Source: Spirochaetia bacterium | Lineage (GTDB): Bacteria > Spirochaetota > Spirochaetia > SP-2023 | NCBI GenBank assembly: GCA_965225855.1 | Contig: CBDDCK010000004.1 | Coordinates: 192,001 to 256,000, forward strand | Direction of reading: 5' to 3' | Length of the DNA: 64,000 nucleotides | In this document: in pieces, positions 34,291 to 41,568 of the stretch | How positions within the stretch are numbered: position 1 is the first letter of the stretch | How the letters are laid out: each line of letters begins with the position of its first letter | The notes under the pieces: generated by a model | What the model saw: the letters and a program-made list of their open reading frames with translations, nothing else | What the model was told of the DNA's origin: nothing | Databases searched by the model: none | Position numbers and translations under genes: made by a program

Positions 34291-35541
34291 CTATTTGGAT
34301 TTTTGCATGATAACAATATATTCATGGTTCATTGTGGTTGCTTTCTTTCCCGTTTGATTTGTAGGGCTATTTTTGCTTGGCATTCTTTTATTGGGTATAT
34401 TTCTAATAAAAATATTTTTATATTCAAAGCCATGTTCTTGAAATAAACATTTGGTTATTTCGTCTGTTGGCAATACCGTATCCTTTACTTTTCTATTGCC
34501 AACCACATAGCAAGCATATCCGCCTGGCTTAATTACATTGGCAACATTGGCAATAGATTTGCTATAATCTGCATAAAAACTATAAATTTCTTTGGCCCTT
34601 TTTTCGTCTTTGTGAGCAATCTCTTGGATAGTAGTATCTATAATATCAAGTCTTGTTGCTTGAATATTTTTCTTTTTGCCACCCAATAATTGGTTATCTA
34701 TTTGGTTGGCACGTTCCATGCCAAGCCACTGGTTGGACAAACGAGAGAATTGACCATAGGCAACTGTGGTCCTGCTATCCCCATAAGGTGGGGAGGTTAC
34801 CACTAAATCAATAGAGTTTTTATCTATTTCTTTGATATTTTCTGCGGAATTAAAATTATAAATATTTGCTGTAATGCCTTCTTTTGCCTTTTGATTATAG
34901 CTCTTTAGCCCGATTCGATTCCTAGCCAGTTTACTATTGATCATACCAAATACATCGGGACGAAATTTTTCCCTTTGTTGTTCTGGCATTCTATACAATT
35001 TAAATTCACTATTTCTGGTAAAAGAACTTTCTCTAATTGTTTCACTAAATGCTACCCAAAAAAATTTTTTAATTGGTTCATTTTGAATATTGTCTATAAA
35101 ATGTTTGATATTTGTCAGCTTATCTTTTATATCTTTGCGAAACCAAAAATCAATATTGTTGAAATGAACGGCAACGATATTCGGTTCTTTGGGAATGCCA
35201 TAGCTCAATGAAAATAAAAAATCGTTAAATTCTTTTAGGTACAAGTCCAGTATTTGTAGTTCTATTTTGGTTGTTTTTGCTTGCGCTATCAGTCTAGCCA
35301 TTGGGTTTAAGTCGGTTCCTATGGAATTAATACCCATTAAGCTTGCTTCCACAAGCGATGTTCCTGTGCCACAATATGGGTCAAAAAGTGTATTGGCTGC
35401 TTTACCGTATAAATCAATAAGCCTATGAGCTATTTGAGGTATCATCATTGCCGGATAATTGTGATAGCAATGGGTATATTGTTTGGTATCGGCGGTTTTA
35501 AAATCCCAAGTATTATCTACATATTTTTTACAGCTATTCAT
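34291..35541 (-). CDS. N4-cytosine DNA methyltransferase (MvaI-like)
   Basis: HNYPAMMIP, FDPYCGTGT (motif I), TSPPY (motif IV). Confidence 0.88.
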   Translation of the reverse strand: MNSCKKYVDNTWDFKTADTKQYTHCYHNYPAMMIPQIAHRLIDLYGKAANTLFDPYCGTGTSLVEASLMGINSIGTDLNPMARLIAQAKTTKIELQILDLYLKEFNDFLFSLSYGIPKEPNIVAVHFNNIDFWFRKDIKDKLTNIKHFIDNIQNEPIKKFFWVAFSETIRESSFTRNSEFKLYRMPEQQREKFRPDVFGMINSKLARNRIGLKSYNQKAKEGITANIYNFNSAENIKEIDKNSIDLVVTSPPYGDSRTTVAYGQFSRLSNQWLGMERANQIDNQLLGGKKKNIQATRLDIIDTTIQEIAHKDEKRAKEIYSFYADYSKSIANVANVIKPGGYACYVVGNRKVKDTVLPTDEITKCLFQEHGFEYKNIFIRNIPNKRMPSKNSPTNQTGKKATTMNHEYIVIMQKSK

Positions 35542-36223
35542 ACGGCAATATCTTCTATCTTGTGGAATAATAAAGGTAGTTTATCCTCGAATATTCTAAA
35601 GCCTGTTCCATGGTTTCTTGCCCTTGTTTCTTTGTCATGTAAGCGAAGATCAACCAATAAATTGCCAGTTTTAAATAGCTCAGCTAGTAAATCTTGATTT
35701 GTTTGCCTCATTAATTGAGCTCTATAAAAATGAAAATATTCTATACCAGCCCTTTCTTCTGTATGTACCGATACAAGTAGTAATGCCGGATTTTCTGTGC
35801 AAACCTTTGTGCAAGAACAGATAATGACCATATTGCTATAACTTGACCAGATATATGCTGAACAGATATTTGTGTTTTATCTACTTTTAAAAATAGACCT
35901 GCACTATTTGGTGTTAAAGACATCGTGTAATACATTCCAAGCCTTCCATTACTATCATTGCTACCATATCGCTTGATCGCTTCCAAAGGATTCATTTGCC
36001 ATGCTTTATTATTGAAAGTAAAAAGCGTAATCATACTATTAGAATTGTCTCTATGAGCTTTAATTTCAATATTATCAATATCAGGTAATGCTAGATTATT
36101 CTCGTCTATACCCATTAAAGTTTCTAATGTAAGTCCGATTCCCGTTGGACCTTTTCTAAGCGATCTTACAAAACCTTTGTTTTTTAATTCTCGAAATCTT
36201 TGGCTAAATTCTTGTAAATCCAT
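35538..36223 (-). pseudogene. MvaI/BcnI-family restriction endonuclease, 1-nt frameshift near 35790
   Basis: GPTGIGLTLE...NNLALPD..IEIKAHR...ITLF; second frame ...VDLRLH...RNHGTGFRI; ATGA overlap with MTase. Confidence 0.85.
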
Positions 36224-36328
36224 TTATTTCCTCATTATGTAATTAAGTTTAGAGTCAAGTTTACTTTTGTAATAGAATGTTTTTTATAAAGCAATCTTTA
36301 ACAATGTCTATCTTTTAGTGAGGCTAGT

Positions 36329-37150
36329 CTATTCAACTCCAAGTAGCGTTAGGAATTCTTCCGTAGATGAGGTATTGGTGATTTGGTATTTTTGCATTTC
36401 TTCTGTACTTAGAAAATGCATACTATTGGAGGGAACTGAACGCATGAAATCAAAAAATTTAGGGCTAATTCCCATTTTTTGGTAGGTATCTTTCATCAAA
36501 GCAATAGCGGGATTATTGTTGTTATAGTCGTTGTTATCTAAATGGGTAAAGTCGTGTATGCCCATTCGGGCACCAACTTCGGCATAGCGGAATTTACCCG
36601 CCATAAATATGTCTACTCCTGCCGACAATATTTCTGATTCTTTAGATGCCCAAGTACCGTAACCATACTCTCGTATCTGCTCCATGGCCTCTGCCATACT
36701 GTACATATCCACACCGCCTGTTATATTTAAAAGTCCAAGAACACGTACATCGGGAAAATTCTGCTGCAGCAATTGAATGGCAGTAGGAAGGGTAGAACCA
36801 AGATTGCCGACTAACACCGCTAATGTACTATCTCCTTCCATCGATAAATAAGAAATATTGATATCCGCAGTATCGGAATTTTCCACTTCATACATATCTA
36901 CCATAAACAGACCATCTTTAAATTGCATAATAAAATGGGGCGTTGATTCGTGTATATCATCTTGCTCTGGGATATTGATAACAACATAATTCTCTTTGGA
37001 AGTAACACTGACTTGTCCAATAGATAATTCCCTAGATAATTCCCTCATATCAAAGATAGCTACGATTTGCTCTGCGTTGTTTAGAGTAGAACAACTATGG
37101 AATATGGCTACCCATATAATAAAAAGTATGATGAGAAGATTTTTCTGCAT
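36329..37150 (-). CDS. lipoprotein with COG3904-like domain, related to 6881-8083
   Basis: Lipobox FHSC; LSAGVDIFMAG...MGIHDF...MHFLS.EE. Confidence 0.65.
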   Translation of the reverse strand: MQKNLLIILFIIWVAIFHSCSTLNNAEQIVAIFDMRELSRELSIGQVSVTSKENYVVINIPEQDDIHESTPHFIMQFKDGLFMVDMYEVENSDTADINISYLSMEGDSTLAVLVGNLGSTLPTAIQLLQQNFPDVRVLGLLNITGGVDMYSMAEAMEQIREYGYGTWASKESEILSAGVDIFMAGKFRYAEVGARMGIHDFTHLDNNDYNNNNPAIALMKDTYQKMGISPKFFDFMRSVPSNSMHFLSTEEMQKYQITNTSSTEEFLTLLGVE

Positions 37151-37272
37151 ACAGAGTCTCCTAAGCTTGTTGAAGTATGCCACTCACAATAAAGTGACAG
37201 CTTTTTATTTTTTCTTCATTGGGGCCGTATTCTAAGTAAAAAATGATCAAGAAACAATCCTAAGCTAGCATT

Positions 37273-38112
37273 ATGAATTCTATTTCCCTAAAGTATCTCT
37301 TACTTAGATTTAAATGGCGTATTTCGTTTACATCTTTATTAGTAATTTTAGAATCCGTTTTAGATATAATGTTCCCATTATTCATAGGTTATGCAATCAA
37401 TGATCTTTTGGCAGGCAAATATACTGGTATAATAAGAATTTTCCTATTGGGCATACTATTGTTAATCATTGGTACGGCCCGAAGGTTTTACGACACGAGA
37501 ATATATGCTGGAATTTACAGCCAAATTACTCCTGAAATAGTTGCATCTGAATATAGCAAAAATAGCTCAGTTTCCAAAATCACCGCCCGGTCATCTTTGT
37601 TGACCGAATTTGTAGAGTTTTTAGAAAACTCAATGCCAGAAGTCATAGGAGCTATTTTTTCTTTAATTGGAATTATTTCGATTATAGCAACACTCAATAT
37701 CCAGGTATTCTATGCCTGTATCGCTCTGTTATTTCTGATTTTTATAATTTATCTGGTAACAGGGAAATTTAATTTTCGTTTAAATGCTCAATACAATGAA
37801 CAATTAGAAAAACAAGTAGAAATATTGGAAAGCCGAAATAATATATTCATCAAAAATTACTTTAAAGACTTGATGAAATGGAATATAAAACTCTCTGATC
37901 TAGAAACTATCAATTACTTTATCATATGGATAGGTATCATTGCCTTAGTTGTATTCACCCCTATAACTGTTATTGAAAGTGGAATATTAGAATATGGTTT
38001 AGTATTTTCTACATTAATGTATGTGTTTGAATATATTAATAAAATATTAGCATTTCCATTCTACATTCAGCAATTGATTCGACTTAAAGAAATTTCTAAT
38101 AGACTAAAATAA
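37273..38112 (+). CDS. ABC-transporter six-TM-domain protein (no ATPase)
   Basis: FPLFIGYAINDLL, ARRFYDTRIY, EFVEFLE. Confidence 0.7.
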   Translation: MNSISLKYLLLRFKWRISFTSLLVILESVLDIMFPLFIGYAINDLLAGKYTGIIRIFLLGILLLIIGTARRFYDTRIYAGIYSQITPEIVASEYSKNSSVSKITARSSLLTEFVEFLENSMPEVIGAIFSLIGIISIIATLNIQVFYACIALLFLIFIIYLVTGKFNFRLNAQYNEQLEKQVEILESRNNIFIKNYFKDLMKWNIKLSDLETINYFIIWIGIIALVVFTPITVIESGILEYGLVFSTLMYVFEYINKILAFPFYIQQLIRLKEISNRLK

Positions 38113-38187
38113 GAATATTATTTGCATATTTAGATAATAGCTTTCTGTCTAAAAAGATGTAAATATCATATACCATAGGAGTATCGT

Positions 38188-39360
38188 ATGACAATTTATT
38201 TATCTATAGGAATGATTTTTACCATATTATTAGTTACTTATATTCTTATACGATGGGGCAATTTGCGCTTAGAAGGCTCCAAACCATTGGGCTTGTTTAC
38301 ATTTACTGCTGTTTTATTTACATCTGGTTTAGATGTAGGTTTAATTATGTTTCCTCTAACTGAATTTCCTGTATATGCAGACCTTGCCAATGCCGTAGAT
38401 TATGGTTTTACCAATCCTTTAGCTATAGAGTTTGGCTTTTGGGGGTTTCTAATTTGGGCTCTGTACTTTTTGACTACATTTTATTTTTGTGCAATTGAAC
38501 CCAAAGTATTATTTTTTGAGATTCCGCTTATTAAGTGGATTAACAATTTTGTGATTATCACAACTTGCGCTTTAACTGGTCATTTATTTTTAATCAATTT
38601 GCCTTGGTATTTGCCAATGGTGGGAGATGGAGAAACCATTGGGCCAGTATTCTACGCCATTGTATTTGGTACAATCGTATTGGCAACTTTATCTTCAACG
38701 CGTATGCGCTATGTGCGGATTTTATCGGTAGCTTCTGTTGCCCTATTTACTATACTAACGCTTGTTATGTGGTTTAGTTCTGGTATGGGCTTTGGCGGTA
38801 TGGTAGAAAATTTGGCCTTACTGGGAGACTACTTTGCCAAGTTAAATAAATTTATTTTGCCGTTTAATGACTATCATCAATTTTATTTATTTTGGTGGTT
38901 TTCTTGGTCTATCATGATAGGCCAATTTGTATCGCGTTTTTTAGGTGGGCTTTATACTTATCAGTTATTGCTGGCAATGTTGGTTATTCCATCTATTTCA
39001 TTGGCCATTTGGTTTTCTGTCCTGTACTACTACCATGTTCAAGAAATTAGTATTGTGCAGTTTAATATTGTGATGGCATTTGTAGGCACTTTATTTGTAA
39101 TCAATTCGCTAGATTCTTTGATCCGTTTATATACCGATAATATGAATTTTACTTTTAAACGCATAAGTAAAACAAAATATGGTGCTGTAAAATATATTGT
39201 AGGGAATGTTGCAGCATTGTGCACTTTAGGTTTATTATTTCATTACGGCTACTTAAGTGCTGAAATTGTAGGATCGATTGTCATAGCTATTTTCTTTATT
39301 TGCACTGTTTATATTTTAAAAAGCAAACGCAGAGAAATTCAAGATATTGGCACGAGATAG
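38188..39360 (+). CDS. BCCT-family (choline/betaine/carnitine) transporter, short type
   Basis: LFTSGLDVGLIMFP, FYLFWWFSWSIMIGQFVSRF. Confidence 0.82.
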   Translation: MTIYLSIGMIFTILLVTYILIRWGNLRLEGSKPLGLFTFTAVLFTSGLDVGLIMFPLTEFPVYADLANAVDYGFTNPLAIEFGFWGFLIWALYFLTTFYFCAIEPKVLFFEIPLIKWINNFVIITTCALTGHLFLINLPWYLPMVGDGETIGPVFYAIVFGTIVLATLSSTRMRYVRILSVASVALFTILTLVMWFSSGMGFGGMVENLALLGDYFAKLNKFILPFNDYHQFYLFWWFSWSIMIGQFVSRFLGGLYTYQLLLAMLVIPSISLAIWFSVLYYYHVQEISIVQFNIVMAFVGTLFVINSLDSLIRLYTDNMNFTFKRISKTKYGAVKYIVGNVAALCTLGLLFHYGYLSAEIVGSIVIAIFFICTVYILKSKRREIQDIGTR

Positions 39361-39428
39361 CCTTAAAGCATAAATTAAAGAGATTCACAAATTCTCACAA
39401 AAAATTATTCATTTTCTTGTTTAGTCGC

Positions 39429-39456
39429 TTGACAAAGTTTTGTTGATTCAAATAAT
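39429..39456 (+). promoter_or_regulatory. sigma70 promoter of leader/symporter transcript
   Basis: TTGACA-16 nt-AATAAT. Confidence 0.6.
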
Positions 39457-39464
39457 GTTAGAAT

Positions 39465-39521
39465 ATGATTACTTTACACCTTGCAAATTGTTGTTGCCAC
39501 TGTCTATCGATCAGGAGGTAG
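39465..39521 (+). CDS. Cys-rich attenuator leader peptide MITLHLANCCCHCLSIRR
   Basis: 18 codons with TGT TGT TGC CAC TGT, between promoter and terminator upstream of a cystine-type symporter. Confidence 0.8.
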   Translation: MITLHLANCCCHCLSIRR

Positions 39522-39566
39522 TTGCGTCTATGTGTATATAATGGCTGTATTTTCGTATTAACCAAT

Positions 39567-39603
39567 AAGGCTACCTTTATCAAGGTAGCCTTTTTTATTT
39601 TTT
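39567..39603 (+). terminator. attenuator terminator hairpin
   Basis: AAGGCTACCTT-TATC-AAGGTAGCCTT followed by T-rich tract, ~30 nt before the symporter ATG. Confidence 0.85.
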
Positions 39604-39629
39604 ATTCACTACAATTTTTAGGAGATATT

Positions 39630-41060
39630 ATGATTGCATTACTTTATTTATCGATAGCTTTTGGCTTGACTGGTATATTTATTGCCCATCGAAAGCAATT
39701 TAGCTTTTCCGTTCAAGTATTCTCGGCATTGTTAGCGGCTATATTGTTAGGCTGGCTCATTAATGTATTGCACAATAATTGGGCCATAGAAGCATCTGCA
39801 TTTAAGAACTGGATAGCATGGCTCAATTTTCTGGGGTACGGTTATGTAGACCTGCTGCGTATGGTTTCCATACCACTGATTATGATTTCTATTATTAGTG
39901 CTTTGGTAAACATCAATTACAAAGAAGATAAAGTGCTTAAAACGGTACTCATTATTTTGGCCACTCTGTTAATTACAGTGGTTCTTGCGGCTTTGGTTTC
40001 ATTGGTTGTTTCAGTGTTTTTGGGCCTAGATTCTTCTTCTCTAACGCCGGACGAAAAGAAATTGGCCAATTGGCAAGGGCGTATTAGTAAAATTGAAAGT
40101 GTGCCCGGGCTATTGCGTAGCTTATTGCCGAAAAATCCCTTTTTGGATATGACTGGCCAGCGCAGTTCTTCTATTGCAGCGGTTGTGATATTTAGCTTGT
40201 TCCTTTCTTGGGGATATTTGAGTTTGGATAAAGATGAGCGCAATGCCCAGCACTTAGATAACTTCCGCAATAGTGTCAATGCCTTACAAAAAGTGATTAT
40301 CAGCATGGTACGCAATGTATTAAAATTAACGCCCTATGGTGTTTTTGCGATTATGTTGCGTGTGGCTTCCAGTACCAATTTTGCTGCTTTACAAGAATTG
40401 GGCAAGTTTATAGCGGCTACTTATGTGGCACTTGGGCTAGTCTTTATTTTGCATTTGATCATTATTGGCTTGTTTGGTTATTCGCCCATTACTTATGTGA
40501 AAAAAGCTTGGCCCACATTGAGCTTTGCTTTTACTTCTCGTTCTTCAGCGGGCACGCTGCCATTGACGATTGAAACTCAAGAGCAAGCATTTGGTGTGAA
40601 AAGTAGCGTTGCTTCTATATCTTCTTCGTTAGGGACAACTATAGGGCAAAACGGTTGTGCTGGCGTATGGCCTGCCATGCTGGTTGTGATGATTTGGAAT
40701 GCCATTGGCCATAATATTGGTGTTTTGGACGTGCTTAGCCTGGTTGGGGTAATCTTAATATCTTCGCTTGGTGTTGCCGGTGTTGGTGGCGGTGCAACCT
40801 TTGCTTCTATTATGGTATTGAGTACTTTGGGGCTTAGCGAGCATTTGGCATTGGCTGTTGTACTCACTTCAATAGAATCCATTGCCGATATGGGGCGGAC
40901 CTTGGTCAATGTTTCAGGTTCTATGGTTTCGGGCTTGGTAACGGGGCGCATTACCAATGGAGTCGATCTAAGTATCTACAATAGCCAAGACAGTCAGGAG
41001 GATATCGTGGAGAATATTGCCAAAAAGAAGGGTAACAATGGGTGGACAACGAAAGCGTAG
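39630..41060 (+). CDS. tcyP: dicarboxylate/amino acid:cation symporter, L-cystine transporter TcyP-like
   Basis: FAFTSRSSAGTLP, TIGQNGCAGVWPAM, GVAGVGGGATFA, DMGRTLVNVSG. Confidence 0.82.
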   Translation: MIALLYLSIAFGLTGIFIAHRKQFSFSVQVFSALLAAILLGWLINVLHNNWAIEASAFKNWIAWLNFLGYGYVDLLRMVSIPLIMISIISALVNINYKEDKVLKTVLIILATLLITVVLAALVSLVVSVFLGLDSSSLTPDEKKLANWQGRISKIESVPGLLRSLLPKNPFLDMTGQRSSSIAAVVIFSLFLSWGYLSLDKDERNAQHLDNFRNSVNALQKVIISMVRNVLKLTPYGVFAIMLRVASSTNFAALQELGKFIAATYVALGLVFILHLIIIGLFGYSPITYVKKAWPTLSFAFTSRSSAGTLPLTIETQEQAFGVKSSVASISSSLGTTIGQNGCAGVWPAMLVVMIWNAIGHNIGVLDVLSLVGVILISSLGVAGVGGGATFASIMVLSTLGLSEHLALAVVLTSIESIADMGRTLVNVSGSMVSGLVTGRITNGVDLSIYNSQDSQEDIVENIAKKKGNNGWTTKA

Positions 41061-41153
41061 TAAATTTGTTTAGTGTTTTTATATTTTCCAGTAAAGCCGT
41101 GGGGGAGCTTACAAAGCCTAGGGGCCCTGCGGCTCTCTTTTTTACTTAAAGTG

Positions 41154-41221
41154 AGAAAATTTATTCTAGGTATATGCCCAAAGTTATTTGTGTATATCAC
41201 CCAAGTTCTTCCCGTATTTAG
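41154..41221 (-). repeat. partial, diverged third copy of the 22-bp-subunit element
   Basis: Minus strand CT-AAATACGGGAAGAACTTGGGTG-ATATACACAAATAACTTTGGGC-ATATAC... Confidence 0.7.
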
Positions 41222-41224
41222 CCG

Positions 41225-41464
41225 AGGCGCGAACCGTGAATTACCCGAGCAATTCACGCAGATAACTTTGCTTATTTTTATGCTGCGGTTGAGCAAGCCG
41301 TTCGGCAACAGAATATACCAGTTGTCTTGGGCTTTGGCGTTAAAGGGTCCACCGAAGTGCGCCAGCTTTGTGAGTTTGCCACAGGTTTTGTGATTGGTAC
41401 AGTTGCAGTCAAGCTGCAAGGAAATTTAATTGAGTATCGTAAATTTCTTGCATCGTTATCTTAG
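41225..41464 (+). pseudogene. trpA: tryptophan synthase alpha chain 3' remnant
   Basis: P*ITRA (decayed PGITGA) ... IPVVLGFGVKGSTEVRQLCEFATGFVIGTVAVK...stop at 41464. Confidence 0.65.
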
Positions 41465-41568
41465 TTGTTTCTAAAATAAAGTTTAAAGTCTGTAACCGAT
41501 GGCCTTAGTATCAATTTTGATGGCAAAAAAATTAAGAAGAATTATCAGCATATATTTGAATATAATAC

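Follow-up and report, generated by a model that had tools for sequence, protein, structure and literature searches.

A candidate cysteine-codon transcription attenuator in the leader of a TcyP-clade transporter gene from a spirochete

Classical attenuators such as E. coli trpL, Salmonella hisL, thrL and pheL combine an upstream open reading frame (uORF) containing codons for the cognate amino acid with alternative pairings of the leader RNA (protector 1:2, antiterminator 2:3 and terminator 3:4) ahead of a gene for supply of that amino acid, a four-segment scheme summarised in the relevant passages of 10.1101/834739. Cysteine is a gap in the list of classical attenuators. The same passages state that as of 2020 no attenuation by a uORF had been described for cysteine (10.1101/834739), and the main text of PMC2965389 names no cysteine case. 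In mycobacteria, the leaderless poly-Cys small ORFs Ms5788A and Rv2334A have been shown to mediate attenuation, which for Ms5788A is described as translational and as working by occlusion of the Shine-Dalgarno (SD) sequence, not through an intrinsic terminator (10.1101/834739). Mycobacterial poly-Cys leaders are also predicted in PMC1262725, whose account of them reports that conserved terminator hairpins were not found there, and further mycobacterial candidates of the translational type are given in the text of PMC13236596. Finally, uORFC-8-2, as its published description has it, places a Cys-codon uORF and an intrinsic terminator before cysS in Rhodobacterales (145 examples, a prediction only; Brewer et al. 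2021, PMC8632094). Attenuation by cysteine is accordingly represented by one proven case that is translational and by one terminator-type case found in print that is a prediction. In 2010 Lopatovskaya, Seliverstov and Lyubetsky surveyed attenuation comparatively, and their work may bear on novelty. Our own literature search found no Cys attenuator for tcyP or in spirochetes; further examples may be given in the supplementary material of PMC8632094 and PMC2965389. An earlier note on the DNA described here had professed to know of no terminator-type Cys attenuator on tcyP or in spirochetes; within the papers searched its claim of novelty stands for this gene and these bacteria but not for the terminator type as such, which uORFC-8-2 anticipates (PMC8632094).

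We analysed 64,000 nt of the genome of a member of the Spirochaetia (this whole stretch is the window), which contains a TcyP-clade transporter gene, called tcyP below, preceded by the leader whose features are collected in Table 1. The leader shares with the classical attenuators a uORF with cognate codons, an intrinsic terminator, 2:3 and 1:2 pairings found in silico and, by homology, a supply gene downstream; it differs from them in that it reads cysteine, likely relies on leaderless initiation and has an importer as its target. We propose that it is a ribosome-coupled transcription attenuator whose Cys codons sense the level of cysteinyl-tRNA, a reading to which we assign a probability of about 0.72. 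The trp/his-type stalling logic that the earlier note had suggested is supported by the anatomy of the leader, by the geometry of the ribosome footprint, by the cognate gene, by a genome that seems to have no cysteine synthase and by the compensated terminator of a relative.

Table 1 Features of the tcyP leader and gene (positions are those of the window).
Feature	Coordinates	Strand	Basis
Sigma-70-type promoter candidate	39429..39458	+	best-scoring of 14 sites in 3 kb, 11/12 matches
Rival extended -10, TG-n-TAGAAT	39456..39464	+	sequence; lacks a -35 match at a spacing of 16-18 nt
Leaderless-type uORF, 18 aa, Cys codons 39489-39503	39465..39521	+	sequence, shuffles; translation putative
Predicted protector (1:2) helix, 39494-39504 with 39509-39521	39494..39521	+	folding
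Predicted antiterminator (2:3), 39514-39523 with 39569-39578	39514..39578	+	folding of partial transcripts
Intrinsic terminator (3:4) with 11-bp stem, loop of 4 nt and U-tract	39567..39603	+	fold; stem kept in relative
Shine-Dalgarno of transporter gene	39620..39625	+	sequence
TcyP-clade sodium:dicarboxylate symporter family gene, 476 aa	39630..41060	+	PF00375 E 5e-85, clade
Hairpin and U-run 3' of transporter gene	41095..41144	+	-24.2 kcal/mol fold of 41086-41160

With uORFC-8-2 the tcyP leader has in common a Cys uORF, an intrinsic terminator and the same proposed stalling logic, but as described uORFC-8-2 carries two tandem Cys codons (codons 14-15) and is confined to alphaproteobacterial cysS, whereas the tcyP leader has four Cys codons, a transporter gene and a spirochete host (PMC8632094). 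The mycobacterial small ORFs, in the accounts cited above, resemble it in being short, in sensing Cys-tRNA through consecutive Cys codons near the end (a proposed role in the tcyP leader), in preceding cysteine-related genes and, if the predicted tcyP start site is right, in being leaderless; in the tcyP leader, by contrast, a strong terminator forms the switch and the SD follows 17 nt after the U-tract. In folds reaching 39605 the tcyP Cys codons pair with 39509-39521 and the terminator precedes the SD, which is not the SD pairing of the mycobacterial type. By these features the tcyP leader is a member neither of uORFC-8-2 nor of the mycobacterial translational class. No Rfam leader family reached its gathering score (the best was Phe_leader, 25.4 bits against 55); T-boxes (RF00230) and other Rfam cis-elements numbered zero in the window, with none over the cut-off at 39300-39700, and no T-box was found in the source genome (G000).

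The uORF encodes MITLHLANCCCHCLSIRR, running from an ATG at 39465 to a TAG at 39519-39521, with Cys at codons 9, 10, 11 and 13 (39489, 39492, 39495 and 39501). No SD precedes its ATG in the sequence; the 18-aa ORF, its four Cys codons in five and its missing SD are all present as the earlier note had read them. Cys codons make up 1.2% of codons in the genome. Among 20000 dinucleotide shuffles of the leader, a small ORF with four Cys in five codons arose in 9, and one that also started within the first 9 nt in 4. A hairpin resembling a terminator lies within 120 nt of the start in 111 of the 1316 genes preceded by a gap of at least 60 nt, and the tcyP leader is the only one of these 111 in which a small ORF with at least three Cys in five codons comes first. 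Genome-wide there are 41 four-Cys small ORFs, four of them intergenic (outside long-ORF calls), and the uORF of the tcyP leader alone precedes a terminator and a gene. Among 42 promoter-adjacent small ORFs, four are followed by a hairpin: one is the tcyP leader and another a 12-aa Cys-Cys ORF at 243486-243600 of contig C1, a candidate that we rejected, there being no downstream gene on its strand. A repeated lipoprotein-like gene lies on one side of this ORF and a convergent gene on the other, and its example indicates that weaker versions, with two Cys codons and a hairpin, can arise by chance. Four Cys codons with a cystine-type transporter downstream are difficult to ascribe to chance and hard to dismiss.

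The promoter candidate begins with TTGACA (39429-39434) and scores best among 14 promoter-like sites in 38500-41500. If AATAAT (39451-39456) is its -10 element, the spacer measures 16 nt and transcription is predicted to start at about 39463; if TAATGT (39453-39458) is, the spacer measures 18 nt and the predicted start coincides with the uORF ATG. Transcription would therefore probably start at the ATG or 2 nt before it, giving a message of the leaderless type. AUGs at or near a 5' end are bound by 70S ribosomes, as described in the pertinent part of PMC9031893. When 2707 ATGs of the genome were examined, 16 without an SD (10 distinct genes) had a bipartite promoter whose -10 begins 12 nt upstream, where the median count for the remaining distances is 3, and this 12-nt peak is the geometry that TAATGT has in the tcyP leader. 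The most common spacer in the genome is 17 nt, so that a promoter with 16 or 18 is suboptimal. The TTGACA promoter-like site of the earlier note is present, with the reservations that its spacing is suboptimal and that a rival extended -10 had been overlooked. From that element, a perfect one (TG-n-TAGAAT, 39456-39464), transcription would start near 39471, within the uORF, leaving the uORF without a start codon. It is accordingly conceivable, if unlikely, that the Cys frame is untranslated and that the hairpin serves constitutively as a leaky terminator or answers to a protein or small RNA, a reading in keeping with the suboptimal TTGACA spacing and with the absence of any in-frame ATG, GTG or TTG between 39471 and the Cys codons. 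This explanation leaves the cluster of four Cys in five codons before a cystine-type transporter to chance (9/20000), and it does not account for the alignment of the RNA switch with the last Cys codon that is described below. Of the objections to the attenuator reading, this rival start site weighs most.

The terminator stem (39567-39577 with 39582-39592) consists of 11 Watson-Crick pairs with a folding energy of -16.1 kcal/mol (z -5.75), a stability reached in 0 of 200 shuffles, and the U-tract runs to 39603; the perfect stem and U-tract reported by the earlier note are therefore as described. Its antiterminator, spanning the uORF stop, is likewise there: 39515-39523 forms 9 pairs with 39569-39577, 3 of them G-U, with predicted energies of -7.8 to -8.3 as a bare helix and -12 to -13 with an inner hairpin. 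On its own this pairing is only modestly unusual, since shuffles matched the duplex energy in 75 of 2000 cases and the switch in 18 of 400. To these elements, both of which stand, we add a protector helix that the first reading had missed, in which the Cys11-His12-Cys13 codons pair with the antiterminator strand (-7.5 kcal/mol; pair probabilities of 0.55-0.92 in transcripts ending at 39560). With the protector, all four segments of a classical attenuator are present. The 1:2 and 2:3 pairings are about equal in energy, which implies that the ribosome-free state is mixed; consistent with this, the model without a ribosome was ambiguous (antiterminator probability 0.35-0.75).

To model the ribosome, we masked 12 or 15 nt past its A site and folded partial transcripts, the longest folds reaching 39605. 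In transcripts ending at 39577-39586, the antiterminator had a probability of 0.93-1.00 when the ribosome occupied any of the Cys codons and of 0.00-0.06 when it stood anywhere from Ser15 to the stop, and in the latter positions the terminator nucleated with a probability of 0.79-0.95 once the transcript reached 39586. The switch point fell between Cys13 and Ser15 with the 12-nt and the 15-nt footprint. Thus the comparison of folds with and without ribosome-masked segments, which the earlier note had proposed as a check, places the flip right after the last Cys codon in partial transcripts. In the full-length leader the terminator had a probability of 1.00 whatever the position of the ribosome. 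The finished terminator thus wins at equilibrium, and control must be kinetic, with the antiterminator as a kinetic trap.

Under the proposed attenuator, transcription would start at the uORF ATG or 2 nt before it and a ribosome would load without an SD. When cysteine is ample, the ribosome would pass codon 13 and cover 39514-39523, so that the terminator forms and transcription stops near 39600. When Cys-tRNA is scarce, the ribosome would stall at codons 9-13 and hold the protector strand, leaving 39514-39523 free to capture the 5' arm of the terminator before the 3' arm exists, with read-through into the transporter gene as the outcome. Antitermination would be kinetic in that the antiterminator acts before the terminator is completed. 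With no ribosome on the leader, the 1:2 protector would favour termination, only partly so in the model.

Sequence from relatives bears on the terminator. The contigs of the relatives cover the terminator and SD region, a thin comparative base. One relative is represented by a 151-nt contig from another study (run X5, depth 2.1) that aligns to 39515-39568 with 8 differences. Its terminator, paired by hand, differs at 5 of 26 positions, 2 of them in the loop, and keeps all 11 pairs; the pair 39569/39590 changes on both sides from G-C to A-U and the pair 39572/39587 on one side from U-A to U-G. Should 39523 be the same in this relative, the substitution at 39569 would in addition replace a U-G pair of the antiterminator by U-A. 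In a relative the SD is improved to the full consensus, at a loose end of the sequence, and the relative in runs X2 and X3 of the probable source sample (coding region about 84% identical) keeps the U-tract and SD and has lost TACAAT. The last of these observations touches on a highly improbable explanation, namely that the hairpin ends the transcript of the upstream BCCT-family gene or a small RNA and that tcyP has a promoter of its own, with TACAAT at 39610-39615, overlapping the U-tract. TACAAT matches the consensus at 5 of 6 positions, and no strong terminator lies between the BCCT stop (39360) and 39429, where the best fold is -5.7. Against such a promoter, its -35 matches at only 3 of 6 positions, the start would fall inside the SD, and it is the conserved A of TACAAT that the X2/X3 relative has lost while keeping the U-tract and SD.

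Two further explanations accept a translated uORF. Still less credible to us is that the nascent CCCHC, like the CXXC of CruR, makes it a sensor of a metal or of redox state instead of tRNA charging. CCCHC does contain a CXXC and a His, Rho is present in the source genome and CruR supplies a precedent; CruR is, in the passages describing it, a DUF2946 protein that acts through Rho with an arrest motif (PMC9426467). The tcyP uORF peptide, however, has 18 aa, with the ribosome near the switch point the exit tunnel would still enclose its Cys residues, and, unlike in the CruR/Rho case, the terminator is intrinsic and the target a cystine-type transporter. Least probable is an action of the uORF on tcyP translation, by read-through of the TAG or by a strong SD-like AGGAGG (39513-39518) loading ribosomes on a Met-Cys-Ile micro-ORF (39530-39541): no stop interrupts 39522-39629 in the frame that both ORFs share and AGGAGG stands 11 nt before the ATG at 39530, but the apparent 2 extra bases in the X5 relative would disrupt this frame if no other change compensates for them, a ribosome stalled on the micro-ORF would cover the antiterminator, so that the response would have the wrong sign, and neither TAG read-through nor the micro-ORF explains the terminator.

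As separate observations on this segment, the uORF is in frame with tcyP, a single TAG being followed by an open path to the tcyP start (39465-39629), and this link of frame is probably not conserved, because 2 additional bases seem to precede the terminator in the X5 contig. The AGGAGG is a perfect one and lies within the antiterminator strand. A>G at 39538, seen in two sequencing runs (X4 and X5), changes the third codon of the micro-ORF to Met.

The downstream gene had been called TcyP-like in the earlier note, an assignment that PF00375, the GQNGCAG motif and placement within the TcyP clade with support 100 (quick tree, 46 rows) uphold, the substrate being assigned by homology. TcyP symporters, including Bacillus TcyP and Borrelia BB0729, share this family, motif and clade; BB0729 was put in the TcyP clade by homology and is argued to be a cystine symporter in the pertinent section of PMC12830385. 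GQNGCAG occurs in 120/120 of the matches listed, and glutamate-type homologues have NMDGT. Among the matches listed, the best named ones are L-cystine transporters (42-48% identity); no NCBIfam model scored above its cut-off. Three closer homologues, one labelled Spirochaetota, are 89% (P0002), 71% (P0003, MEM9423971.1) and 61% (P0004) identical and form with the tcyP product (P0001) a long-branch subclade (branch 1.47, quick tree). Going by these similarities, the 476-aa protein is likely an L-cystine importer, and if the attenuator is real, the leader backs cystine as a substrate of this divergent subclade. The hairpin at 41095-41144 is likely the end of a single-gene transcript.

The source genome (94% complete) has no match over the cut-off for cysK or cysM and none for cysE, with one weak cysE-family match. 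Its two PALP proteins are threonine-synthase-like and cysteate-synthase-like. Given the apparent absence of cysteine synthase genes in this genome, the organism is likely to depend on uptake of cyst(e)ine, as far as gene content can tell; the incompleteness of the genome and two unassigned Cys/Met PLP enzymes leave room. The genus, represented by four genomes, carries tcyP and cysK/cysE in a complementary pattern: tcyP is present in the source genome and in the third congener (G003), which lacks cysK, and in the other two congeners (G001 and G002) cysK and a cysE-like gene were found but nothing at TcyP level. The cysteate-synthase-like PALP protein (contig C4, 173010-173924) matches TIGR03844 below the cut-off, over part of the query.

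The earlier note had also proposed looking for conserved Cys-rich uORFs before homologues of tcyP, and the more distant homologues screened lack the leader. We found no Cys leader at 29 spirochete homologue loci (the top loci of 54 matching genomes among 401) and no Cys uORF with terminator at 30 Fusobacteriota homologue loci (33 matches among 121), 11 of which have Cys-containing small ORFs, none followed by a terminator. The combination of Cys uORF and terminator was absent from all 20 non-self loci among the matches listed (21 of 22 loci yielded an entry), from the upstream regions of 9 of the 12 metagenome loci and from the Cys/Met PLP enzyme loci (L023, L095 and L096), and no Cys leader with terminator was found at the cysK, cysS (4 of 4) and cysE loci of the source genome and its three congeners. 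Two loci (L035 and L036) have a 2-Cys ORF over a weak hairpin, which we did not count as a Cys leader. Searches for orthologous leaders gave 1 locus in genome contigs, 12 distant loci in metagenome contigs, 2 in viral contigs and none in plasmids; a close tcyP orthologue is absent from 5 other genomes of the order, and searches of the 3 congeners for orthologous leader DNA gave short chance matches only (best E 0.15). A pattern for the antiterminator/terminator layout had 0 hits in viral contigs, and a loose version of it, run over 151 genomes, matched at the control level, the other matches in the source genome being repeats. That distant homologues lack the leader suggests that the element is lineage-restricted.

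A more specific account, which we favour only slightly over its negation, is that a leaderless poly-Cys uORF and a complete four-segment terminator attenuator arose independently on a cystine importer in a cysteine-auxotrophic spirochete lineage, in effect coupling a sensor of the mycobacterial kind with a switch of the enterobacterial kind. As a mechanism this is textbook, although for cysteine the terminator type has been put forward only as a prediction to date; the new parts are likely the leaderless start, the transporter target and the spirochete host. If the proposal holds, this would be the first cysteine attenuator in Spirochaetota, a spirochete would control amino acid uptake via transcription-translation coupling begun by a leaderless ribosome, and the leader would offer a compact 140-nt test case for the coupling of leaderless ribosomes to RNA polymerase.

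Upstream of tcyP, the stretch 36300-39600 has a GC content of 0.32-0.35 against 0.40 and holds an ABC membrane domain gene and the short BCCT-family gene, which was not found in the 3 congeners; further upstream (34291-36223), a split restriction-type gene pair and a methyltransferase-like ORF were read by eye. The low-GC stretch around the leader was possibly acquired. A G-rich motif opens the hairpin 3' of tcyP; G003 has this motif too, about 450 nt before its own tcyP (L004), and with only 4 copies of the 9-mer in the source genome this motif is not a repeat family. The source genome also carries, on contig C5 and others, a large family of near-identical lipoprotein-like genes (products starting MYKLKLLLLP) with common upstream hairpins, and a leaderless gene (product starting MNNLAEHH) recurs in it in six copies.
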